Assembly: GCA_013336165.1 (NCBI GenBank)
Contig: JAAXUF010000008.1
Coordinates: forward strand, 8,743 to 72,742
DNA: 64,000 nt
From: Coriobacteriia bacterium
Lineage (GTDB): Bacteria > Actinomycetota > Coriobacteriia > Anaerosomatales > JAAXUF01
Direction of reading: 5' to 3'
Shown here in pieces: positions 1 through 16,553 of this stretch. Positions within the stretch are counted from its first letter, which is position 1. Every line of letters starts with the position of its first letter. The notes beneath the pieces were generated by a model. It did not search any database. It saw only the letters and a program-made list of their open reading frames with translations, and had not been told where the DNA came from. A program made the translations under genes and the position numbers.

Positions 1-2749
1 TCGCATGGCCGACCCGCAGCTGGCGCTCGATCTGCTGATGACGGACGATCCGGGGCGCGCGGAAGATCTCTCGCGCGAACTCGACGAGCTGAACCGCCTG
101 CGCCAGAACACCGAAGCCGACCTTGCGGCGGCTGCGACCGCGCTGGCCGAGCGGACCTACCGCGGCGAGCGCGCGCTCGTTTTAGCGGGCGAGGGTTGGC
201 ACGAAGGCGTCAAAGGCATCGTCGCCTCGCGACTTACGGCTCTCTATCACGTGCCCACGTTGTTGCTGACCGTTGCCGATGGCGAGGCGCGAGGAAGTGG
301 GCGCACCATCGGGCACGTCGATCTGTTCGCTGCGCTGACTTCGTGCGCCGACATTCTCACGCGTTTCGGCGGACACGCCGCGGCCGTGGGCTGCACCTTG
401 TCGGCGGAAGACGTCGACGAGCTGCGTCGGCGCTTGGTAGCCCACTTTGACACGCTGCCAGCTTCACAGTTCGAAACCTCGATGCACGCAGACGCCGAGA
501 TGGAGCTTGGCGACGTGAGTGTTGAGCTCGCGGCGGAGTTTGATTTGCTCGCCCCATTCGGACATGCAAACCCGGTCCCGCTCATGGTGAGCCGCGGGGT
601 CTTCATGAACGGCCGCCAGCGTGTGGGAAAGCTTGGCAACCACCTCAGGTTCACCGCCTTCGACGGTGCAGTGAGCGTGCCCGCAATCTCATTTCGATGT
701 GCCGAGATCGACGATCTCGTCGACCAAGACGGTGCGGTCGACTTGGCGTATGAGATAACCGCCGATCAGTGGCGAGGCCGAAACCGTGTGCAGCTTCGCG
801 TTCGCGATTTCGTCGTTCACGATGTCCCGGCGGATGCCCCGGCTCGCGAGCTGGTGGAGAGCCTCTTCGCGCAGGCCGATGCGATCCTGGCTCGCGAGGA
901 GTACGCGAACATCGAGGACGCGGACGCCTTTCACACGAAACTTGCGGGGGTGACCTTCGAAGGCAGGCAGGATGTTCTCGGCCGGGTCGTGCCGGGGATC
1001 CCCCTGCGTCTCGTGCGTCAACCCGAAAATCAGTTTGACTCGAATGCTTGTGCGCTTTTTGATCCACATGGCGATCAAGTCGGGTTCCTCAACCGTCGGC
1101 TTGCCGCCGCATTGGCGGCCACAATCGACAAGGGTGTCGGCTACGACGTCGAGGTCACGGAAGTCACCGGTGGCGAGGAAGGCCGCTCGTTGGGAGTCAA
1201 CGTGCTCGTCTCGCGCCGCGGGGCTGGCGGCGGGGCTGATGGTGAGGATGCCGTCGCCCAGAGGGCGTCACGCCGTGTGGAGCTGGCTGCGCTTCCTGCA
1301 GACGCTCTGGACCGGGAGCTCACAGAGCGCTTCATCGGCAATCGTAGTCTGCATGAGGCGCAGGTTCGCGCGCTTGCGCATTTGGCCGCCGGCGAGAACA
1401 CGCTCGCGGTGATGGCGACAGGTCGCGGCAAGTCGCTGATCTTCCACCTCCACGCGGCGCGAACCGCGCTGCGCGATGGGCGCGCGAGCATCTTCATCTT
1501 TCCGCTGCGCGCACTGGTCGCCGATCAGGCGTACCACCTCGAAGAAGTGTTCGCCGAGGTCGGCCTCGTCGTCCGCACGGTGACCGGCGAGAGTTCGCAG
1601 GGCGAGCGCGACGAGGCGTTCTCGGCGCTGGCCGAAGGCAGTCTCAACGTTGTGCTCACGACACCGGAGTTCCTGGACCTGTATGCGGGGAGATTCGCCC
1701 AAGGCGGGCGTGTCGGCTTCGTGGTCGTCGACGAGGCGCATCACGTCGGCATGTCGCGTGCAGGGAACCGGCCGGCGTACGCGCGGCTCGGTCTTGCGCT
1801 GGAGACGCTCGGGAGCCCGGTGGTGCTTGCGGTCACGGCAACCGCCGATGACGCGACTGCCACCGCAATCCGCTCCACACTGCACATTACCGCGACCGTG
1901 CTGGACCCGACGGTGCGCGACAACCTCGTGATCGAGGATCGCCGCGGTATCGCCGACAAGGATGGTTACCTTCTGGTGCTCGCGGCTAGGCCCGAGAAGA
2001 GTGTCATCTACGTGAACTCACGCGATCAGTCGGTCAAGCTCGCACGCATGCTGCGCAAACGGGTGCCAAGCGTGGCGATGCGCACGGCGTTCTACAATGG
2101 CGGCCTCGCGCGATCGGTGCGCCACGCCGTCGAGCACGCGTTTCGCGCGGGCGAGGTGTCGCTGGTGATCGCGACCAGCGCGTTCGGCGAGGGCGTCAAC
2201 ATCCCCGATATCCGAAACGTTGTCTTGTACCACCTGCCGTTCAATAGTGTTGAGTTCAACCAGATGTCGGGCCGCGCCGGGCGCGACGGCGCCGTCGCGC
2301 GCGTGCACCTGCTGTTCGGTCAGAAGGATGCGCGCATCAACGAGACCATCCTGTCCTCCTTGGCTCCGGCGCGCGATGACATGGTGGCGCTGTATGTGGT
2401 TCTGCGCGATCTGGGCGCTGCCGAGGGTGCCGGCTTCGAGATTACCAATGCTGAGCTTGCCGAGCGCTGTCGGAAGACGCGCAAGGGCTTTGCGCTCGAT
2501 GAGGGAGGTATTTCCTCGGCGCTGGGGATCTTCCGCGAGCTCGGGTTCGTGACCGGTGAGGGGCATGGGGCCTATCGGCGGCTCACGTTCGTGCCCGGCA
2601 CGGCAAAGGTCGACCTCGAGTCGAGCGTCAGATATGCCGAGGGAAAGGACGAGGTCGAAGAGTTCGGCAACTTCAAGGCGTGGGTGCTTGGAGCACAGGC
2701 CGATGAGCTGCTCGCACGCTTCAACCGGCCGATCCTGCCGAGAGAGTAG
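1..2749 (+). CDS. 5'-partial fusion protein: RecJ-like DHHA1 + RecJ OB-fold, a HIRAN domain, and a RecQ-family superfamily-2 helicase
   Basis: The reading frame is open to the window edge. The N-terminal part has the DHHA1 'FGGHAAAVG' (GGGH) motif and a RecJ C-terminal OB region (GHANPVPL). A HIRAN-like block follows (LAGVTFEGRQDVLGRVVPGIPLRLVRQPENQFDSNACALFD...GDQVGFL). The helicase part has motif I ATGRGKSLIFHL, motif II VVVDEAHHV, LAVTATAD, and the RecQ motif VI-like SGRAGRDG. Confidence 0.75.
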   Translation, partial: RMADPQLALDLLMTDDPGRAEDLSRELDELNRLRQNTEADLAAAATALAERTYRGERALVLAGEGWHEGVKGIVASRLTALYHVPTLLLTVADGEARGSGRTIGHVDLFAALTSCADILTRFGGHAAAVGCTLSAEDVDELRRRLVAHFDTLPASQFETSMHADAEMELGDVSVELAAEFDLLAPFGHANPVPLMVSRGVFMNGRQRVGKLGNHLRFTAFDGAVSVPAISFRCAEIDDLVDQDGAVDLAYEITADQWRGRNRVQLRVRDFVVHDVPADAPARELVESLFAQADAILAREEYANIEDADAFHTKLAGVTFEGRQDVLGRVVPGIPLRLVRQPENQFDSNACALFDPHGDQVGFLNRRLAAALAATIDKGVGYDVEVTEVTGGEEGRSLGVNVLVSRRGAGGGADGEDAVAQRASRRVELAALPADALDRELTERFIGNRSLHEAQVRALAHLAAGENTLAVMATGRGKSLIFHLHAARTALRDGRASIFIFPLRALVADQAYHLEEVFAEVGLVVRTVTGESSQGERDEAFSALAEGSLNVVLTTPEFLDLYAGRFAQGGRVGFVVVDEAHHVGMSRAGNRPAYARLGLALETLGSPVVLAVTATADDATATAIRSTLHITATVLDPTVRDNLVIEDRRGIADKDGYLLVLAARPEKSVIYVNSRDQSVKLARMLRKRVPSVAMRTAFYNGGLARSVRHAVEHAFRAGEVSLVIATSAFGEGVNIPDIRNVVLYHLPFNSVEFNQMSGRAGRDGAVARVHLLFGQKDARINETILSSLAPARDDMVALYVVLRDLGAAEGAGFEITNAELAERCRKTRKGFALDEGGISSALGIFRELGFVTGEGHGAYRRLTFVPGTAKVDLESSVRYAEGKDEVEEFGNFKAWVLGAQADELLARFNRPILPRE

Positions 2750-2856: not shown

Positions 2857-5079
2857 ATGTCGGCAACGCTCGAACAGATTGAGACAAAGGTCAAGGCATA
2901 CAACCCTGCCGCAGACCTCACAGGGCTGGACAAGGCGTTTGCCTTCGCTACGCGAGCTCATGAAGGTCAGAGCCGCAAGAGCGGTGAACCTTTCATCGGA
3001 CATCCCCTCGAAGTCACGCTTGTTCTCGCCGAGCTGCATATGGACACGACCACGCTCGTAGCTTCGCTTCTGCATGATGTCGTTGAGGACTCTGACGTTA
3101 CACTCGAGGCAGTCCGCGACGAGTTTGGCAACGAAGTCGCAGAGCTCGTCGACGGCGTCACGAAGTTGGGCCGAATCGAGTTCGAATCGCTTTCCGAGGC
3201 GCAGAGCAACAACCTGCGCAAGATGCTCATAGCGATGGCGAAGGACATCCGCGTCATCATCATCAAGCTCGCTGACCGGCTGCACAACATGCGAACCCTA
3301 GCGGCGCTGCCCGAGGACCGCCGCATCGAGAAGGCGCGCGAGACCATCGAGATCTACGCGCCGCTCGCACACAGGCTCGGGATATCGAGTATCAAGTGGG
3401 AGCTTGAGGATCTCGCGTTCTACTACCTTGAGCCGCACAAGTTCCACCAGGTTTCGCGAATGGTGGCCGAGAGCCGCAAGGCCCGCGAGGACTACACGAT
3501 CAAGGTCATCGGCCAGCTGACGGAGGAACTTGCCGCGATCGGGATCAAGGCGAAGATATCGGGGCGGCCCAAGCATCTCTACAGCGTCTATCAGAAGATG
3601 AGCCAGAAGGGCCGTGACTTCAACGAGATCTACGACCTCATCGCCCTGCGCGTGATCGTCGACTCGGTCAAGGATGTCTACGGGGCTCTCGGCACGGTTC
3701 ACTCGATCTGGAAGCCGGTGCCCGGCCGCTTCAAAGACTACGTCGCGATGCCAAAATTCAACATGTACCAGTCCCTGCACACGACAGTCATAGGCCCGTC
3801 GGGCGCGCCGCTGGAGATACAGATCCGCTCGGAAGAGATGCACCGCATGGCCGAGTACGGCGTGGCGGCGCACTGGCGCTATAAGGAGGGCTCGCGAGGG
3901 GAGGACGCGTTCGATGAGCGTCTCGCATGGTTGCGTCAGATGCTCGAGTGGCAGACCGAGCTCAAAGACCCGCGCGAGTTCATGGAAGCTCTCAAGATCG
4001 ACCTGTTCGAAGAGGAGGTCTTCGTCTTCACTCCTAAGGGCGACGTCATATCGCTCAAGCGCGGTTCAACCCCCATCGACTTCGCCTACATGATCCACAC
4101 GGAGGTCGGGAACCATTGCGTGGGCGCGAAGGTCAACGGTTCGATCGTACCTCTCGGCTACGAACTGCAGATGGGCGACCGCGTCGACATCCTCACCAAC
4201 AAGAATGCCAACCCTTCGCGCGACTGGCTCAACATCGTCAAGACCTCCTCGGCGCGATCGAAGATACGCAACCACCTAGCCAAGGCCACTCGTGAAGACG
4301 ATCTCGTCCGCGGGCGTGACGAGCTCGCAAAGGTGATGCGCAAGCACGGTCTGGGAATCGGCAGCAAGACCGCCGAGAAGGCCGCGGACGCCGTTGCGGT
4401 CGAGCTGAACTTCACGGCCGCAGAGGACGTGTTCGCAGGAATCGGCGCCGGCAAGGTTTCGGCGCAGATGGTCGCGACCAAGCTCCTCAAGCTCATGGCC
4501 AAGGACGGTGAGGCCGAGAAGCCTGAGTCCAAGACGCCCGAGTTCACACTCGCCATGCCGATGACGCCGCCGCGCGGCAAGCGCACCAAACCTGCCGGCG
4601 GCGTGAAGGTCAAGGGCATCGACGACGTCCTTGTGCGCCTCGCGCGGTGCTGCACCCCGGTGCCCGGTGACGCGATCATCGGCTTCGTGACGCGCGGGCG
4701 CGGCCTGTCCGTCCACCGCCGCGACTGCCCCAACGCCGCCGAGCTCCTGAGCACGCCCGAGCGCATCATCGAAGTCGAATGGGACACCGGCACATCGACG
4801 ACCTTCCAGGTCGAGATATTCGTCGAGGCGATGGATCGGCTACGTCTCCTGCAGGACGTCACCTCGGCCCTCGCCGAGCAGGGCGTCAACATCCTCTCGT
4901 CATCTACCACCACGCACCGCGACGGAACGGTGGACATGCGCTATCTGTTCGAGATCGGCGACCTGTCACGGCTGGACTCCGTATTGGGAGAGGTGCGCCG
5001 CACGGAAGGCGTATTCGAGGCGCGACGCATGCAGCCCGGAGAGGCGAGCCAGCGTAAGCGGGGAGGAGACCACAGATGA
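2857..5079 (+). CDS. rel: Bifunctional (p)ppGpp synthetase/hydrolase Rel (HD + RelA/SpoT + TGS + ACT)
   Basis: 740 aa. An HD hydrolase region (HDVVEDS) is followed by a synthetase region (RPKHLYSVYQKM, DLIALRVIV), TGS (FTPKGDVISL) and a C-terminal ACT domain. Confidence 0.95.
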   Translation: MSATLEQIETKVKAYNPAADLTGLDKAFAFATRAHEGQSRKSGEPFIGHPLEVTLVLAELHMDTTTLVASLLHDVVEDSDVTLEAVRDEFGNEVAELVDGVTKLGRIEFESLSEAQSNNLRKMLIAMAKDIRVIIIKLADRLHNMRTLAALPEDRRIEKARETIEIYAPLAHRLGISSIKWELEDLAFYYLEPHKFHQVSRMVAESRKAREDYTIKVIGQLTEELAAIGIKAKISGRPKHLYSVYQKMSQKGRDFNEIYDLIALRVIVDSVKDVYGALGTVHSIWKPVPGRFKDYVAMPKFNMYQSLHTTVIGPSGAPLEIQIRSEEMHRMAEYGVAAHWRYKEGSRGEDAFDERLAWLRQMLEWQTELKDPREFMEALKIDLFEEEVFVFTPKGDVISLKRGSTPIDFAYMIHTEVGNHCVGAKVNGSIVPLGYELQMGDRVDILTNKNANPSRDWLNIVKTSSARSKIRNHLAKATREDDLVRGRDELAKVMRKHGLGIGSKTAEKAADAVAVELNFTAAEDVFAGIGAGKVSAQMVATKLLKLMAKDGEAEKPESKTPEFTLAMPMTPPRGKRTKPAGGVKVKGIDDVLVRLARCCTPVPGDAIIGFVTRGRGLSVHRRDCPNAAELLSTPERIIEVEWDTGTSTTFQVEIFVEAMDRLRLLQDVTSALAEQGVNILSSSTTTHRDGTVDMRYLFEIGDLSRLDSVLGEVRRTEGVFEARRMQPGEASQRKRGGDHR

Positions 5080-8928: not shown

Positions 8929-9208
8929 CCACGGCCTTTCGCGACCGTTTGTCCGGTGTGATGTTGGCGCGCAACGCTGTGGGGTTTACACTAACGATAG
9001 GCTCCGCCTTGTTCGTGGCTTGGCGCATACGGTCGAACCAATACTTCTCTATCGGGAGCTTCATATCCTGAGGCGGGAAGGTATCCTTTCCTGATGGAAG
9101 GGAAGCTTCTTTTAGCCGATGTGCGAGCACCCACCTGCTAAGGCAGGTTCACCTTGTCAGGCCACGAACAAGACGAAGCAACCGGTATTCTTTGAGGGAG
9201 GACATCCG

Positions 9209-9769
9209 ATGCGCAGACTCGTCGCCGTACTCGCCCTTGCGTCGTTGACGCTTGCGGTTGTCGGCTGCACCAGCACGCCGACGTCGACGGCCACCACACC
9301 TGCAGCGACCGCTGCGCCGGTCGTGACGGCATCCGCAACCCCCAAAATCTCGGGATCGGGTTCGATATTCGTGCCGCTCCCCAAGGGCGACTTCATCTCC
9401 GCCGACCTCCAGAAGTCACTGGATGCCAAGCATGCGGTGCTCATCTACTTCTACAACTCCAAGCAAGACACGAGCACTGAGAGCCGCAAGATCATCGATT
9501 CGGTTCTCGCCGCGAATGCCGGATTGGTCGATGTCGTCACCTACGACATCAGCAAGTATGCGACCTGGAGCGGTGGGGTCGTCACAATCGATCCGGCATA
9601 CGCCAGCGACAAGGCCGCTGTTGCGGCGGTCGGTCTGACTCGAGCGCTTGGCGTGACGTTCATCCCCGCGACCATCGTGATCGACAAGCAGGGCTACGTG
9701 ACCTACGCGCGAGAGGGTCTCATCGACCGCGAGTTCCTCACACGCGAGATCTTCCGCGCGGCTAAGTAG
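9209..9769 (+). CDS. Lipoprotein with a thioredoxin-like fold (no CxxC)
   Basis: Has a lipoprotein signal peptide (MRRLVAVLALASLTLAVVGC) and a T/A-rich linker. The region HAVLIYFYNS...VTFIPATIVIDKQG resembles a TlpA/thioredoxin fold but has no catalytic cysteines. Confidence 0.5.
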   Translation: MRRLVAVLALASLTLAVVGCTSTPTSTATTPAATAAPVVTASATPKISGSGSIFVPLPKGDFISADLQKSLDAKHAVLIYFYNSKQDTSTESRKIIDSVLAANAGLVDVVTYDISKYATWSGGVVTIDPAYASDKAAVAAVGLTRALGVTFIPATIVIDKQGYVTYAREGLIDREFLTREIFRAAK

Positions 9770-9780
9770 TAAGACGGCCT

Positions 9781-11124
9781 ATGCGGTCGCTCTTCGATGA
9801 AGGGGCCGACGAGGCGCGGGCCAAAGCCGCACCGCTTGCGGCACGCATGCGCCCACGCACGCTCGACGAATTCGTTGGGCAGTCCGACGTCGTAGGCCCG
9901 GGCACTTGGCTGCGCCGCGCCATCGCCGAGGACACGCTGTCATCGGTCATTCTCTACGGTCCGGCGGGCACCGGGAAGACGTCGCTCGCCCGCATCATCG
10001 CTTCGGCGACCCACGCCCATTTCGAAGAGGTCTCGGCTGTGACCGCCGGTGTCGCCGAGTTGCGCAAGGCGATCGCGGAAGCCTCGGACCGCCTCGGCTT
10101 GCAGGAGCGGCGTACGATCCTGTTCATCGACGAGATCCACCGGTTCTCGAAGTCGCAGCAAGACGCGCTTCTGCACGCGGTCGAGGATCGCATCGTCATC
10201 ATGGTGGGCGCCACCACCGAGAACCCCTTCTTCGAGGTCAACGCACCCTTGATCAGCCGATCGCGCGTGATCGTCTTAAATGTGCTCTTCGACGATGATG
10301 TGCGCGAGATCGTTCGCCGGGCGGTGATCGACGATCGCGGGCTGGCGGGCAAGGCGCGGCTGACGCCGGAAGCCGAAGACGCCATCGTCAATGAGGCCGG
10401 CGGAGACGCTCGTGTTGCGCTGACCACGCTCGAGCTGGCCGCGGGGGAGGCTCGCAACGCCACGGTAGGCGCGGACGGCGTTTGCGTCATCGGCATCGAC
10501 GAGGTCCGCAAGACATCGTCTTCTCGGCTGCTGCCGTACGACAAGCGCGGCGACGTGCACTACGACGTGATCTCGGCGTTCATCAAGTCGATGCGGGGGA
10601 GCGATCCTGATGCCGCGGTCTACTGGCTCGCTCGCATGATCCACGGTGGCGAGGATCCCAAGTTCATCGCGCGGCGCATGATGATCTTCGCGTCTGAGGA
10701 TGTGGGCAACGCCGAACCGCAGGCGCTCCTGATCGCTCACGCAGCATTCAAGGCCGCCGAGTCCATCGGCTGGCCCGAGGCACGCATCAACCTGGCTCAG
10801 GCCGCGGTGTACCTCGCGCTTGCCCCGAAGAGCAACGTGGCTTGTGTTGCGATTGACGCCGCGCTCGCCGAGATCCGCAAAGGTCCAGCTCAGGGCGTGC
10901 CCAACCATCTTCGTGACCGTCATCGGCCGGGCGCCGAGGGGTACGGCCCCTACCGGTATCCGCATTCGTATCCGGATGCGATCGTGCAGCAGCGCTATCT
11001 TCCTGAAGGTCTGGAGCGGGGAGCCTTCTACACCTCTTCGCCGAGAGGCTGGGAGGCCGCTCGCTCGCGGGAGCTCGGCCGCTTGCGTGACGCTGATATC
11101 GCTCGCGATGAGCGCGACGTCTGA
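9781..11124 (+). CDS. rarA: Replication-associated recombination protein A (AAA+ ATPase)
   Basis: Walker A GPAGTGKTSLA, Walker B ILFIDEIHRF, plus the MgsA lid and C-terminal tetramerisation regions. Confidence 0.9.
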   Translation: MRSLFDEGADEARAKAAPLAARMRPRTLDEFVGQSDVVGPGTWLRRAIAEDTLSSVILYGPAGTGKTSLARIIASATHAHFEEVSAVTAGVAELRKAIAEASDRLGLQERRTILFIDEIHRFSKSQQDALLHAVEDRIVIMVGATTENPFFEVNAPLISRSRVIVLNVLFDDDVREIVRRAVIDDRGLAGKARLTPEAEDAIVNEAGGDARVALTTLELAAGEARNATVGADGVCVIGIDEVRKTSSSRLLPYDKRGDVHYDVISAFIKSMRGSDPDAAVYWLARMIHGGEDPKFIARRMMIFASEDVGNAEPQALLIAHAAFKAAESIGWPEARINLAQAAVYLALAPKSNVACVAIDAALAEIRKGPAQGVPNHLRDRHRPGAEGYGPYRYPHSYPDAIVQQRYLPEGLERGAFYTSSPRGWEAARSRELGRLRDADIARDERDV

Positions 11125-12720: not shown

Positions 12721-13932
12721 GTGATCACACCCGAGCAACGCTATTCAAAGTGGCGCACCACGGCGGTCATCGCTTGGGGGTCTATCGGTATTCTGGTGCT
12801 CATCGGCGCCGCCCTCGTCGGGATGTCGCACATTGTGAATGCGCTGGTTCCGTTCGCCCTCGCCCTCCTGTTTGCCTTCCTAATGCGTTCGCCCATCAAT
12901 GCGCTTGTTTCCCGGGGCTGGTCGCGCGGACTCGCCGCGCTGACTTGCATTCTGACCGTGTTCATTGTCATCGGAGGAGTGCTGACGTTCGTCATCCCGC
13001 CGATAGGGCGTCAGACGGTCGCGTTTGTCGGCGACATACCCAAGTACCTGACTCAAGTTGAGAATCTGATCGCGAGCCTCAGCGCCCGGTTTACCTTGGC
13101 GACCCTCCCTACATGGGTCAGCGACATCTCCACGGCCATCAGCGATCAGATGTCAGGGGTCGCGCTTGCGGCTGGGAACGGAATCGCAAAGGGTGTTGTG
13201 TCTGCTGGCAGCACCATGGCGACCGGAGTCTTCGACATATTCATCGGTTTCGTGATCGCCTACTGGATACTGAGGGATCTTCCCAAGATCCGCCAGGAAC
13301 TGGCAGTCTTGGCGGGGCCCAAGTACGAAAGAGATCTCGAGCATGCGCTGGCGACGATATCTCGCGTGGTCGGCGGCTACCTGAAAGGTCAGACCATCGC
13401 ATCGCTGGTTACCGGAACACTCGCGACCATCGGACTTGCGATACTTGGCGTGCCGTATGCGCTTGTGCTGGGACTAATGGTGTTCATCCTCAACTACGTG
13501 CCCTACATTGGGCCGATGATATCGGCTCTGGTCGCCGGTCTTGTGGGCCTTCTTGTGGGCCCATGGGTGGGAGTCGGCGCTGTGGCTGTGGTCGTTGTCG
13601 CGCAGAACGTCACCGACAACTTTGTGACGCCCCGCGTCATGTCCGAGCAAGTCGACCTGCATCCGACGCTCGTGATATTCTCGCTGCTCGTCGGCGGAGC
13701 GCTTTTTGGCATTCCGGGCATGGTGCTGGCGATCCCCGTGGCTGCAACGGCGAAGGGGCTGTTCGTCTATTACTACGAGCGCAAGACGGAGCGCTCGCTG
13801 GTCAGCGACGACGGCGCGCTATTCCGCAGGCAGGCCGGTCCGGCGCCTGAAGAGCCACGAGTGGTGCAGGACGACGAATCGGCCGCTGAGACACCTGATG
13901 ACATTCAAGAGAGCGCGAGGAACGATACGTGA
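12721..13932 (+). CDS. AI-2E family transporter (PerM/UPF0118)
   Basis: About 8 TM helices; the FLLNYVPYIGP motif is typical of the AI-2E family. Confidence 0.8.
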   Translation: MITPEQRYSKWRTTAVIAWGSIGILVLIGAALVGMSHIVNALVPFALALLFAFLMRSPINALVSRGWSRGLAALTCILTVFIVIGGVLTFVIPPIGRQTVAFVGDIPKYLTQVENLIASLSARFTLATLPTWVSDISTAISDQMSGVALAAGNGIAKGVVSAGSTMATGVFDIFIGFVIAYWILRDLPKIRQELAVLAGPKYERDLEHALATISRVVGGYLKGQTIASLVTGTLATIGLAILGVPYALVLGLMVFILNYVPYIGPMISALVAGLVGLLVGPWVGVGAVAVVVVAQNVTDNFVTPRVMSEQVDLHPTLVIFSLLVGGALFGIPGMVLAIPVAATAKGLFVYYYERKTERSLVSDDGALFRRQAGPAPEEPRVVQDDESAAETPDDIQESARNDT

Positions 13933-16553
13933 ATTCGGTGGACATACGTGAGAAATACCTTTCATTCTTCGAGAGCAAGGGCTGCCGCAGGCTTCCGTCA
14001 TCTTCGCTGATTCCGGACGACCCCTCACTGCTTCTGACCACGGCCGGTATGGTGCAGTTCAAGCCTGTGTTCCTCGGCGCGAAGAACCTCGGGTTCACAC
14101 GCGCCACGACCGTGCAGAAGTGCGTCCGCACCACCGATATCGACATCATCGGTACGACGGGGAGGCATCACAGCTTCTTCGAGATGCTCGGCAACTTCTC
14201 CTTTGGCGACTACTTCAAGTCCGAGGCGTGCGCTTGGGCGTGGGAGTTCTCGACCGGTGTTCTCGGGCTGGATCCGGACCGTCTCTGGGTCTCGATATTT
14301 GAAGACGACGACGAAGCCGAGAACATCTGGATCAACGAAGTCGGTGTTTCCGCCGATCGGATCGTACGGATGGGAGCGAAGGACAACTTCTGGTCGGCCG
14401 GACCTACGGGCCCCTGCGGACCATGCTCCGAGCTCTACTACGACCAAGGGCCTGAGGTCGGTTGCGGCAGCGCCGAGTGCGCGGTCGGGTGCGACTGCGA
14501 CCGATTCCTTGAGTATTGGAACCTCGTCTTCATGCAGTACGACAGGGCCGAGGACGGCACGCTATCGCCCCTGCCCAAGAAGAACATCGACACCGGCATG
14601 GGCCTTGAGCGCATCGCCGGCATTCTGCAAGGCGTGCGCTCGAACTTCGAGACCGACATCCTGCGCTCGCTGATGACGCTTGCCGGGGAAATCACCGGTA
14701 CCCTGTACGGCGCGGGCGAGAAGTCTGACACCTCGCTGCGCATCATCGCCGACCACGCTCGCGCGGTGACGTTCCTTATCGCCGACGGCGTCATCCCGTC
14801 CAACGAAGGCCGGGGTTACGTGCTTCGCAGGCTCCTGCGGCGTGGAGTGCGGCACGGCAGGTTGCTCGGGGTCGAGGATGCGTTTCTCGTGCGGCTCGTC
14901 GATCTCGTCATCGAGCTCATGGGTGCCGCCTATCCCGAGATTGTCGAGCATCGCGATCTCATCGAAGGTATCGTGGAGAGCGAAGAGGAGAGATTTGGCG
15001 TCACGCTTCGTCAGGGCATGGGCTTCCTCGAGACGGAGCTCGAAAGGCTCGCCAACTCCGGCGGCGGCACGCTGGACGGCAACACAGCGTTCGCGCTTCA
15101 CGACACCTACGGTTTCCCGTTCGAGCTGACCGCCGAGATCGCCGCCGAGAAGGGCGTCGCGGTCGACGTCGACTCCTTCACTAGCGCGATGGAAGCGCAA
15201 CGCAATCGTGCTCGCGCGGCGGTCAAGGACGATTCGTGGACAGCTTTTGGCGGCGTGGCTGCTCAGGTCGCGAAGGAGCGCGGCGCAACCGACTTCGTGG
15301 GGTATGAGCACGATGAGACCGCTGCGCACGTCATTGCGCTCATTCGCGGGGGTGAGCGCGTCGAGGCGCTGCTGGCGGGCGAGCTGGGCGAGATCGTGCT
15401 TGACCGGACCTCGTTTTACGGCGAGCAGGGAGGTCAGGTCGGCGACATCGGCACAATCACCGGTGACGAGGCGGTGTTCATCGTCGAGGACACGAAGATA
15501 GCGCAGGGGGTCATCACGCATCTGGGCCACGTCGAGTCAGGGACCCTTCATGTGGGTGAAGACGTGCATGCAGTGATCGACGTGTTGCGCCGCGAGCGCA
15601 TTCGCAGAAACCATACGGCGACCCATCTACTGCACTGGGCGCTGCGGCTCGTTCTCGGCCAGCATGCCAAACAGGCCGGTTCATACGTCACTCCCGAGCG
15701 GCTGCGGTTCGACTTCACGCACTTCGAGGGCATGACGCGCGAGCAGCTCGACAAGGTCGAACGCCTGGTCAACGCCAAGATCTTCGAGAACCATCCCGTC
15801 AGGGCATACGAGACGTCGATCACATTCGCGCGCGAATCCGGCGTGACCGCGCTGTTCGGCGAGAAATATGGCGAGTTCGTGCGCGTGCTCGAGATAGGCA
15901 ACTTCTCCAAGGAGTTGTGCGGCGGCACTCATATCGCACGGACCACCGAAATCGGCCTCGTGAAGATCGTCTCGGAATCCAGCGTGGGGGCCAATCTGCG
16001 CCGGATCGAGGCGGTTTCCTCATTCGATGCTTATGATCTCGTCCTGCGTGAGGAAGCTGAGCTCATCGAAGCTGCCGATCTCCTGAAAGTGCCGCGATTT
16101 GACACGGCGGAACGCGTGAGTGCTCTCTTGACGCACAGCAAGGAGCTTCAAGCCAAAGAAGGCTCGCGTCTGCGTGCTGTGGCAGACAACGTCGTTGACG
16201 AACTGTTCGGGCAGGCCGAGAACGTCGGCTACCCGGTGGTTATCGCGCAGGTTCCGTCGGTAGATGCCAAGGCGATGCGCGCGCTCGCGGATTCGTTGCG
16301 CAGTCGCCTTGAAGGCGGTGCGGTCTTCCTCGCGACCACCGAACCCGCTGGCGGCACCCCACTGCTGCTGGCGGCCGGCTCCGATGAGGCGGTTGCGGCC
16401 GGTTTCGACGCGGGTGCCGTGATTCGCGCTGCGGCCGTGGCGGTCAAGGGTGGCGGCGGCGGAAAGCCGCAGATGGCGCAAGCCGGCGGCAAGGACGCCG
16501 CGGGCATCGATGAAGCGCTTCGCATCGCCCGCGAGACCCTCGGCGCGAGATAG
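13929..16553 (+). CDS. alaS: Alanine--tRNA ligase
   Basis: 874 aa with class II AlaRS motifs (FTTAGM-like TTAGMVQFKP, WSAGPTGPCGPCSE), the editing-domain HTATHLLH motif and a C-terminal DHHA1-like domain. Confidence 0.95.
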   Translation: MNSVDIREKYLSFFESKGCRRLPSSSLIPDDPSLLLTTAGMVQFKPVFLGAKNLGFTRATTVQKCVRTTDIDIIGTTGRHHSFFEMLGNFSFGDYFKSEACAWAWEFSTGVLGLDPDRLWVSIFEDDDEAENIWINEVGVSADRIVRMGAKDNFWSAGPTGPCGPCSELYYDQGPEVGCGSAECAVGCDCDRFLEYWNLVFMQYDRAEDGTLSPLPKKNIDTGMGLERIAGILQGVRSNFETDILRSLMTLAGEITGTLYGAGEKSDTSLRIIADHARAVTFLIADGVIPSNEGRGYVLRRLLRRGVRHGRLLGVEDAFLVRLVDLVIELMGAAYPEIVEHRDLIEGIVESEEERFGVTLRQGMGFLETELERLANSGGGTLDGNTAFALHDTYGFPFELTAEIAAEKGVAVDVDSFTSAMEAQRNRARAAVKDDSWTAFGGVAAQVAKERGATDFVGYEHDETAAHVIALIRGGERVEALLAGELGEIVLDRTSFYGEQGGQVGDIGTITGDEAVFIVEDTKIAQGVITHLGHVESGTLHVGEDVHAVIDVLRRERIRRNHTATHLLHWALRLVLGQHAKQAGSYVTPERLRFDFTHFEGMTREQLDKVERLVNAKIFENHPVRAYETSITFARESGVTALFGEKYGEFVRVLEIGNFSKELCGGTHIARTTEIGLVKIVSESSVGANLRRIEAVSSFDAYDLVLREEAELIEAADLLKVPRFDTAERVSALLTHSKELQAKEGSRLRAVADNVVDELFGQAENVGYPVVIAQVPSVDAKAMRALADSLRSRLEGGAVFLATTEPAGGTPLLLAAGSDEAVAAGFDAGAVIRAAAVAVKGGGGGKPQMAQAGGKDAAGIDEALRIARETLGAR

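Follow-up and report, generated by a model that had tools for sequence, protein, structure and literature searches.

The window analysed here, a stretch of 64,000 nucleotides from contig JAAXUF010000008.1 of a Coriobacteriia bacterium, begins inside a gene in which the exonuclease RecJ, a HIRAN domain and a superfamily 2 (SF2) helicase resembling RecQ are joined in one polypeptide chain. This is a real, single, conserved gene, and assembly error, frameshift and the abutting of separate genes are excluded as its origin. The RecF pathway has its textbook pair of helicase and nuclease in RecQ and RecJ, which to our knowledge are two distinct proteins in all organisms studied so far. We consider it moderately probable that the fusion serves as a one-chain helicase-nuclease for 5'-strand resection at DNA ends, gaps or stalled forks, with the HIRAN domain holding the 3'-OH. 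Each component family is known, and so is the functional partnership of RecQ and RecJ; the novelty lies in the covalent arrangement, in the HIRAN domain set within it and in the link to the C-terminal domain of the long RecJ proteins of Firmicutes. The architecture was not described in the literature that we searched, which comprised open-access papers, and a prior mention elsewhere is possible.

One gene and its RecJ part

The gene lies in frame 2 of the plus strand, is open from nt 2 at the window edge to a TAG stop codon at 2747-2749 (+), and runs through 915 codons without a stop, the remaining two plus-strand frames being densely interrupted. A preliminary description of the window had taken this frame for a single polypeptide open at its 5' edge, and indeed neither a stop nor a frameshift interrupts the junctions between RecJ, HIRAN and helicase; the motifs that it quoted are all found in the window where it had placed them. 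The complete protein is available as a public NCBI entry of 1203 aa from a Coriobacteriia metagenome-assembled genome (MAG), here called P0001, which carries the database label "RecJ" and is 100% identical over the whole of the window frame. P0001 has 288 additional N-terminal residues, so that K477 of the window protein is K765 of P0001, and its DHH domain at aa 78-227 confirms the earlier supposition that this domain lies just upstream of the window. A Pfam scan finds DHHA1, RecJ_OB, HIRAN, DEAD and Helicase_C in the window protein, all above their gathering cut-offs and far beyond chance, in addition to DHH in P0001.

The same Pfam content is found across the 120 best database relatives (62-76% identity, drawn from NCBI, JGI, ENA and Logan assemblies), with HIRAN (PF08797) present in 120 of 120 and DHH missing only from N-terminally truncated entries; the complete members among them measure approximately 1173-1252 aa. 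In an alignment of 18 close sequences (A1, consisting of the window protein and 17 close homologues), the inter-domain linkers are conserved like the domains themselves, and every catalytic residue is invariant. The AlphaFold2 model of the 915 residues, computed from an 84-sequence alignment, has a mean pLDDT of 92.7 and a pTM of 0.81, and its junctions are not disordered, the linkers being modelled at a pLDDT of about 74-90.

The fusion might in principle be an artefact, with a frameshift, a mis-assembly or a read-through joining two adjacent genes, a concern that is raised only since the window begins inside the gene and for which no supporting point was found. The architecture recurs without interruption in over 100 proteins of the NCBI, JGI, ENA and Logan assemblies; because a protein with these six domains is encoded by more than 100 assemblies that are independent of one another, an error of assembly around nt 700-900, which had been named as a possible objection, is ruled out. 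The same architecture is encoded on a 2.8-Mb contig of a relative (P0002, 76% identical), isolates of Collinsella ureilytica and Collinsella sp. An7 carry a form without HIRAN in their genomes, and the conservation and confident modelling of the linkers also speak for one continuous protein. We regard the chance that the fusion is an artefact as negligible.

The window protein starts with the long inter-domain helix of RecJ (aa 1-57, nt 2-172, +; AlphaFold2 helix at aa 17-52), which is the C-terminal end of the upstream part whose DHH domain is located outside the window; the alignment to the NCBIfam recJ model (TIGR00644) begins at model position 272 at window aa 1. The DHHA1 domain follows at aa 58-145 (nt 173-436, +; Pfam PF02272, 43.2 bits) and holds, in FGGHAAAVG at nt 365-391, the GGH motif that had been recognised earlier; G411, G412 and H413 of P0001 are invariant both in A1 and in a second alignment, A3, of 61 distant representatives. 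The RecJ OB region, also recognised earlier, is an OB-fold domain at aa 164-269 (nt 491-808, +) with a Pfam RecJ_OB (PF17768) score of 82.9 bits and an E-value of 2e-23. Over the 18 close and 61 distant sequences the RecJ motifs DFDLDG, VDCG, DHH, GTVAD and GGH are invariant, motifs I-IV lying upstream of the window and being read in P0001, where the residues D84/D86/D88, D141, D164-H165-H166 and D230, together with GGH, are likewise unchanged. The best solved RecJ relatives are 5f54 and 2zxo, and Foldseek aligns 280 columns with the RecJ of Staphylococcus aureus (8y30) at an rmsd of 2.2 Å. The full-length P0001 scores 451.6 bits against the TIGR00644 equivalog, over model positions 2-545 of 546 and above the cut-off of 396.9; the window fragment alone reaches only 179 bits because the DHH half lies off-window.

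The position of the gene agrees with these scores. Within the window the fusion is followed by relA/spoT (2857-5079), which is the next gene, and then by genes for an MBL-fold hydrolase, hisS, aspS, a 216-aa open reading frame (ORF), rarA/mgsA, a sigma factor, an AI-2E transporter and alaS. The upstream synteny was taken from P0002, on whose 2.8-Mb contig queA, tgt, yajC, secD and secF are found upstream, and relA, hisS and aspS a few genes downstream. The order secDF-recJ-relA-hisS-aspS is the classical recJ neighbourhood of Gram-positive bacteria. Because the gene occupies this canonical recJ slot and the protein scores as a TIGR00644 equivalog, we class it as a RecJ orthologue, not a paralogue, and predict that its product is a 5'->3' single-stranded DNA exonuclease; judged from its sequence and place, the fusion is the organism's housekeeping RecJ with additions rather than an accessory paralogue. 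Within the 64-kb window, no second copy of recJ, HIRAN or the helicase was detected by tblastn.

HIRAN, helicase and C-terminal domain

The RecJ part is connected to the HIRAN domain through a conserved linker (linker 1; aa 270-308, nt 809-925, +) that contains short helices at aa 282-296, is modelled at a pLDDT of about 74-88 and shows the conserved block LVExLFAxAxxILAREEYxxI in A1. The HIRAN domain itself occupies aa 309-405 (nt 926-1216, +), and its Pfam PF08797 match at aa 312-389 scores 31.7 bits in the whole protein and 35.0 bits (E 1.3e-8) on the isolated segment, against a cut-off of 24.7, which substantiates the HIRAN signature given in the preliminary description. Three predicted 3'-end pocket motifs mark the domain, KLAGVTFEGRQ at nt 938-970, NQFDSNA within RQPENQFDSNACAL at nt 1016-1057, and VGFLNRRL at nt 1079-1102. 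In phmmer comparisons with the human HLTF HIRAN structures 2mzn and 4xzf (E 1.3e-4), NPYDKNA pairs with NQFDSNA, and LRLVRQPENQFDSNACAL..VGFLNRRLA of the window protein pairs with VALQRDPNNPYDKNAIKV..VGHLKKELA of both structures. The HLTF positions NxYDxN and, in the strand and helix that come next, an aromatic and a basic residue, which form the 3'-end pocket in the published structures, have aligned counterparts in the window HIRAN; the predicted pocket residues F345, D346 and N348 of the window protein are F633, D634 and N636 of P0001, in which N631 and D634 are invariant in A1. The HLTF HIRAN domain holds a free 3'-OH end, as seen in its structures of 2015, and the HIRAN domain of the window protein is probably a 3'-end-binding domain as well.

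A second linker (linker 2; aa 406-445, nt 1217-1336, +) consists of an acidic or Gly-rich loop and two helices (aa 412-429 and 433-445 in the AlphaFold2 model) that lead into helicase motif 0. The first RecA-like domain of the SF2 helicase extends over aa 446-634 (nt 1337-1903, +; Pfam DEAD at aa 453-617, 78 bits) and the second over aa 635-773 (nt 1904-2320, +; Pfam Helicase_C at aa 660-763, 79.7 bits). None of the SF2 motifs 0, I, Ia, II (DEAH), III, V and VI is missing, and they do not vary among close homologues: motif 0 is LTERFIGNRSLHEAQ (nt 1319-1363), Walker A is MATGRGKS (GRGKS; nt 1412-1435), the DEAH motif lies at nt 1724-1744, motif III reads TAT, and the second RecA domain contributes motif V, TSAFGEG, and motif VI, QMSGRAGRDG (nt 2261-2290). 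In A1 the invariance covers G762-K765-S766 and D865-H868 of P0001 and likewise the motifs of RecA domain 2. This pattern indicates purifying selection on catalysis, and the helicase is apparently active.

The nearest solved helicases by sequence are the RecQ proteins of C. sakazakii (4tmu) and E. coli (1oyw), with E-values of about 1e-30. Foldseek aligns 500-525 columns with RecQ catalytic cores of 511-516 residues, and the next-best matches in sequence and fold are RECQL5, WRN and BLM. The preliminary description had assigned the protein to the RecQ family and had credited it with all RecQ helicase motifs. The first of these statements holds as far as the nearest solved relatives are RecQ cores, but the scores remain below the NCBIfam family cut-offs (recQ_fam TIGR00614, 160.3 bits against 219.8; recQ TIGR01389, 169.9 bits against 640.2), and the RecQ-model alignment ends at about model position 345, the end of the RecA core. 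The second holds for the SF2 motifs 0, I, II, III, V and VI, but not for the aromatic-rich loop, the Cys4 zinc site and the HRDC domain. The canonical loop is of the SQWGHDFRPEY type, and in E. coli RecQ it reportedly couples ATP hydrolysis to unwinding; its degenerate counterpart after DEAH in the window protein is VGMSRAGNRPAY (GMSRAGNRPAY), which keeps only R-P-x-Y and lacks the Trp, His and Phe. In the window protein Pfam gives no RecQ_Zn_bind (PF16124) match and no HRDC match at E <= 0.1, and a single Cys (aa 823) follows the helicase core. Because the scores fall below the cut-offs, RecQ hallmarks are missing and models of the defence helicases DpdF and PsyrT give similar scores, we class this part of the protein as a RecQ-like SF2 helicase that is no member of the RecQ family.

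The chain closes with a C-terminal domain (CTD) at aa 774-915 (nt 2321-2746, +), composed of a zinc-less helical hairpin, a winged helix, two terminal helices and a tail. In the AlphaFold2 model the hairpin takes the position of the RecQ zinc subdomain and the winged helix spans aa 812-863; the protein ends 52 residues past the winged helix, with the conserved tail RFNRPILP, and the CTD modelled alone reaches a pLDDT of 93.6. When the profile of the CTD was compared with profiles of the C-terminal extensions found in long RecJ proteins at loci of Bacillales, Desulfosporosinus and Clostridia, the probability was 98.7-99.0% (E 2e-16 and 5.5e-18), and a weak match of Pfam PF10141 (ssDNA-exonuc_C) in the window protein agrees with this result. 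By these profile matches the winged-helix domain of the fusion is homologous to the CTD of long Firmicute RecJ, a group (S. aureus 8y30, Bacillales/Clostridia, about 700-820 aa, PF10141) that is without HIRAN and without a recognisable helicase. The fusion thereby offers a hypothesis for the origin of the unexplained CTD of RecJ of the B. subtilis and S. aureus type.

The first hhalign run had extended into helicase domain 2, and the idea that long Bacillales RecJ might retain a decayed RecA2 remnant was considered and dropped because a control alignment, in which the N-terminal half of the extension alone was compared with the helicase core, gave a probability of 1.2%; only the homology of the winged-helix CTD stands. 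A search of PDB sequences with the CTD alone returned chance matches only. Long RecJ proteins of 700-820 aa were also seen in Desulfosporosinus (L022:5974-8436 and L024:5953-8421) and in Bacillota and Oscillospiraceae MAGs (L025 and L040), and the CTD hidden Markov model (HMM) of the fusion family matches the C-terminal parts of these proteins at E 3e-3 to 5e-6. Pfam PF10141 has no match in the long RecJ of L022, and this model may be under-sensitive for the domain.

A conserved family and its variant forms

The joining of RecJ, HIRAN and helicase had been described as unusual, a view that does not hold, as the window protein belongs to a large conserved family. A search of 1.84 billion cluster representatives returned 2277 proteins at E <= 1e-30, the best 150 of which were parsed with domain HMMs of the close family. 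Among these best 150, approximately 60 representatives have the full order DHH-DHHA1-OB-HIRAN-helicase-CTD, down to 27% identity, and approximately 30 have the same order without HIRAN and measure 1046-1140 aa. The HIRAN-bearing members with names come from Coriobacteriia and Anaerosomatales MAGs, Ca. Oleimmundimicrobium americanum, a Peptococcaceae MAG and an Armatimonadota MAG, with Fuchsiella alkaliacetigena (WP_248663770.1) as a cultured example; those without HIRAN come from Collinsella ureilytica, Collinsella sp. An7, C. aerofaciens and an Eggerthellaceae genome. The annotation "RecJ" thus hides a helicase in hundreds of genomes, including those of the human-gut genus Collinsella. A separate scan of genome contigs yielded 80 loci that are mostly ordinary RecJ, because the scan patterns were generic RecJ DHH motifs, and these loci are no census of the fusion.

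The fusions of gut Coriobacteriia (Collinsella and the Eggerthellaceae genome) share the DHH-DHHA1-OB-helicase-CTD order with the window protein, show 46-52% best-segment identity to P0001 and have intact helicase motifs in their representatives, but a linker of 60-85 aa stands in place of HIRAN. In a rough distance-based neighbour-joining tree, drawn without support values, the forms lacking HIRAN are interspersed with those that have it, which suggests that HIRAN has been lost repeatedly. One fusion of 1111 aa without HIRAN (L005, CAVCKO010000020.1) is titled 'Treponemataceae bacterium', and it agrees in length and domain coordinates with the Collinsella loci L004, L006 and L012; contamination during binning may explain the taxon label.

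The helicase, too, varies within the family. Most of the 50%-identity cluster representatives keep the helicase motifs, as tabulated motif by motif, but in A3 the Walker A, DEAH and motif VI signatures are lost, with the RecJ motifs invariant, in P0203, P0243, P0208, P0224, P0226 and P0244, and further in P0230, P0231, P0239, P0247, P0253, P0256 and P0261. P0203 is from Armatimonadota, P0243 from Fuchsiella, and several of the decayed members are HIRAN-less forms; P0203, P0208, P0224 and P0226 keep the HIRAN motifs despite the decay of the helicase. We read these proteins as putative pseudo-helicase derivatives of the fusion. The first six of them, together with several HIRAN-less forms, might lend themselves to a wider reading in which the helicase part of the window protein, too, is a pseudo-helicase, a structural or regulatory DNA-binding module that only positions RecJ, and the degenerate aromatic loop of the window protein would fit with this. 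However, all ATPase and helicase motifs are invariant in the window protein and in 17/17 close homologues, and their retention by most of the cluster representatives also speaks against such a reading, which we consider very unlikely for the protein at hand.

Convincing genes for a HIRAN-helicase-CTD protein without RecJ number two, P0184/L082 and P0200/L085. The latter (L085:632-2533, on a contig of the Logan assembly SRR30413548) comes immediately after the C-terminus of secF and so stands in the recJ slot; the former (L082:265-2193) lies on an AT-rich contig among small ORFs, a DUF6075 gene and an HTH_3 regulator, a context resembling that of a mobile element. P0222 and P0178 were considered as stand-alone helicases and rejected, being fragments at contig edges.

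The setting of P0184/L082 among small genes and an HTH_3 regulator is one of two points that would favour a role of the fusion against phages or mobile elements, as a defence helicase of the DpdF or PsyrT type with a nuclease, instead of a role in repair. The other is the PADLOC scores on the helicase core, which reach 189.7 bits for DpdF and 162 bits for PsyrT. These matches, however, span the generic helicase core only, and the NCBIfam DpdF model gives 127 bits against a cut-off of 550. Furthermore, the window and the 76%-identical relative both have the gene at the conserved recJ position, flanked by secDF and relA-hisS-aspS, the protein is a RecJ equivalog by score, and its neighbours are relA, the MBL hydrolase gene, hisS, aspS, rarA and alaS, with no dpd or toxin-antitoxin partner genes nearby. 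A function in defence therefore strikes us as extremely improbable.

Related arrangements were met in other phyla. A Petrotogaceae MAG encodes a RecJ ORF of 1055 aa (L079:5959-9123) whose C-terminal region at aa 793-918 matches the HMM of helicase domain 2 only (E 3e-11), no Pfam helicase model matching that region, and this protein is possibly a further RecJ-helicase fusion in decay, from beyond Actinomycetota and Bacillota. In a Prevotella sp. MAG (L061:5941-9584) and a Muribaculaceae MAG (L075:5908-9541), an ordinary recJ gene (about 575 aa) stands directly before a distinct recQ gene (about 640 aa), with a gap of 15 nt in L061 and an overlap of 17 nt in L075; the helicase of L061 carries RecQ_Zn_bind, and that of L075 is matched by helicase HMMs only. 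This adjacency in Bacteroidales is an independent gene-neighbourhood link between the two activities.

Proposed function and genomic setting

The two activities predicted for the window protein are those of RecJ and RecQ in the RecF pathway of E. coli and D. radiodurans, but here they are joined covalently with HIRAN in between, and the helicase is set apart from that of the pathway by its missing zinc site, HRDC domain and aromatic loop and by its scores below the RecQ cut-offs. As Morimatsu & Kowalczykowski 2014 are cited in PMC4846377, RecJ alone resects only 5'-tailed DNA, and blunt or 3'-tailed ends call for the 3'-5' helicase RecQ; direct contact between RecJ and RecQ was not detected in D. 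radiodurans (PMC4846377). A 3'-5' motor and a 5'-3' exonuclease that work on opposite strands move in the same direction, and a one-chain resection enzyme is therefore the simplest model. The motor would translocate 3'->5' on one strand and open the duplex, starting at a blunt or 3'-tailed end, at a gap or at the arm of a fork. The complementary strand, once displaced, would be threaded, 5' end first, into the ring formed by the DHH, DHHA1 and OB domains of RecJ and be degraded 5'->3', and the HIRAN domain, by binding the free 3'-OH terminus, would target or orient the enzyme at the end and shield the 3' strand that serves as the substrate of RecA. We infer the polarity of translocation, the path of the DNA, the role of HIRAN and the substrate in vivo from what is known of the component families. 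To call the protein a self-contained end-processing machine, as was done initially, would be reasonable in view of the known partnership of RecQ and RecJ.

Some of the observations reported above weigh against this model. The aromatic loop is degenerate and the zinc site and HRDC domain are absent, so that the properties of the motor may differ from those of RecQ, and on the helicase core the DpdF and PsyrT models score about as well as those of RecQ. In several lineages, moreover, the motifs of the helicase are decayed but RecJ, and in many cases HIRAN, is intact, and the motor is therefore dispensable in some relatives.

The same enzyme could also have stalled forks and daughter-strand gaps, and not double-strand ends, as its main substrate. 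HIRAN would then dock on the 3'-OH of the nascent leading strand or of a primer, the helicase would unwind the nascent lagging strand or the downstream fragment, and RecJ would degrade that strand 5'->3'. In HLTF, the HIRAN domain recruits its motor to fork structures and sets the direction of the motor (PMC4666394), and E. coli RecQ and RecJ process UV-blocked forks (Courcelle & Hanawalt 1999, as cited in PMC4663267 and PMC4846377). The retention of HIRAN alongside RecJ even where the helicase has decayed would be consistent with such a role, as would, as a weak contextual hint, the presence 7 kb downstream of rarA/mgsA, the gene of a fork-associated ATPase, but this proximity falls within a generic housekeeping cluster. 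The present data fit ends as well as they fit forks and gaps, and the roles are not exclusive; as the main occupation of the enzyme, forks and gaps are in our view a serious alternative, if the less likely one.

The general design of a motor physically coupled to a nuclease for work on DNA ends is shared with WRN, RecBCD, AddAB, AdnAB and Sgs1/BLM-Dna2, none of which has a DHH nuclease or a HIRAN domain. WRN, whose helicase cores are among the best fold matches of the window helicase, combines a RecQ helicase and an exonuclease in one chain, but its nuclease is a 3'->5' exonuclease of the DnaQ type, and RecBCD, AddAB and AdnAB consist of SF1 motors and PD-(D/E)XK nucleases. Human HLTF and yeast Rad5 resemble the window protein in that HIRAN is joined to an SF2 ATPase, with NxYDxNA of HLTF matching NxFDxNA; HLTF, however, is a SWI/SNF translocase on double-stranded DNA with a RING ligase and no nuclease, whereas the window protein combines a RecQ-like motor with an exonuclease.

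The gene is a Rosetta-stone fusion whose HIRAN domain was not expected but which fits the current understanding of the pathway, and its conservation as a covalent unit is strong comparative evidence that both activities act on the same DNA molecule simultaneously. Being a single compact chain, it lends itself to structural and single-molecule work on how a 3'-5' motor passes the 5' strand to a DHH nuclease. As far as we have found, a HIRAN domain is here for the first time an integral part of a core enzyme of bacterial repair, and its presence in RecJ permits one to test whether the capture of a 3'-OH is a general way to aim motors at ends or forks. A joint reading, which we put forward as decidedly tentative and rather unlikely in its entirety, would make the chain an autonomous resection and fork machine, perhaps the ancestral RecJ of Terrabacteria (Actinomycetota, Bacillota, Armatimonadota), with HIRAN as the 3'-OH sensor through which the enzyme could begin at blunt or recessed ends unaided by accessory proteins. 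In the long RecJ of Firmicutes (B. subtilis and S. aureus type), the CTD would then be a vestige that outlasted the motor, and the fusion might substitute for an enzyme of the RecBCD/AddAB type in Coriobacteriia.

Some further features of the window remain to be mentioned. Neither tRNAs nor Rfam RNAs were found in it. The alaS gene (13929-16553, +) encodes its own C-terminal DHHA1 domain (58.9 bits), which is unrelated to RecJ function and is the only other DHHA1 match, found among the nine downstream ORFs scanned. The 216-aa ORF between aspS and the rarA/mgsA-type AAA+ gene (9119-9769, +) has no Pfam match, and the AAA+ gene itself, approximately 7 kb downstream of the fusion, occupies 9781-11124 (+) and matches MgsA_C at E 6e-64.

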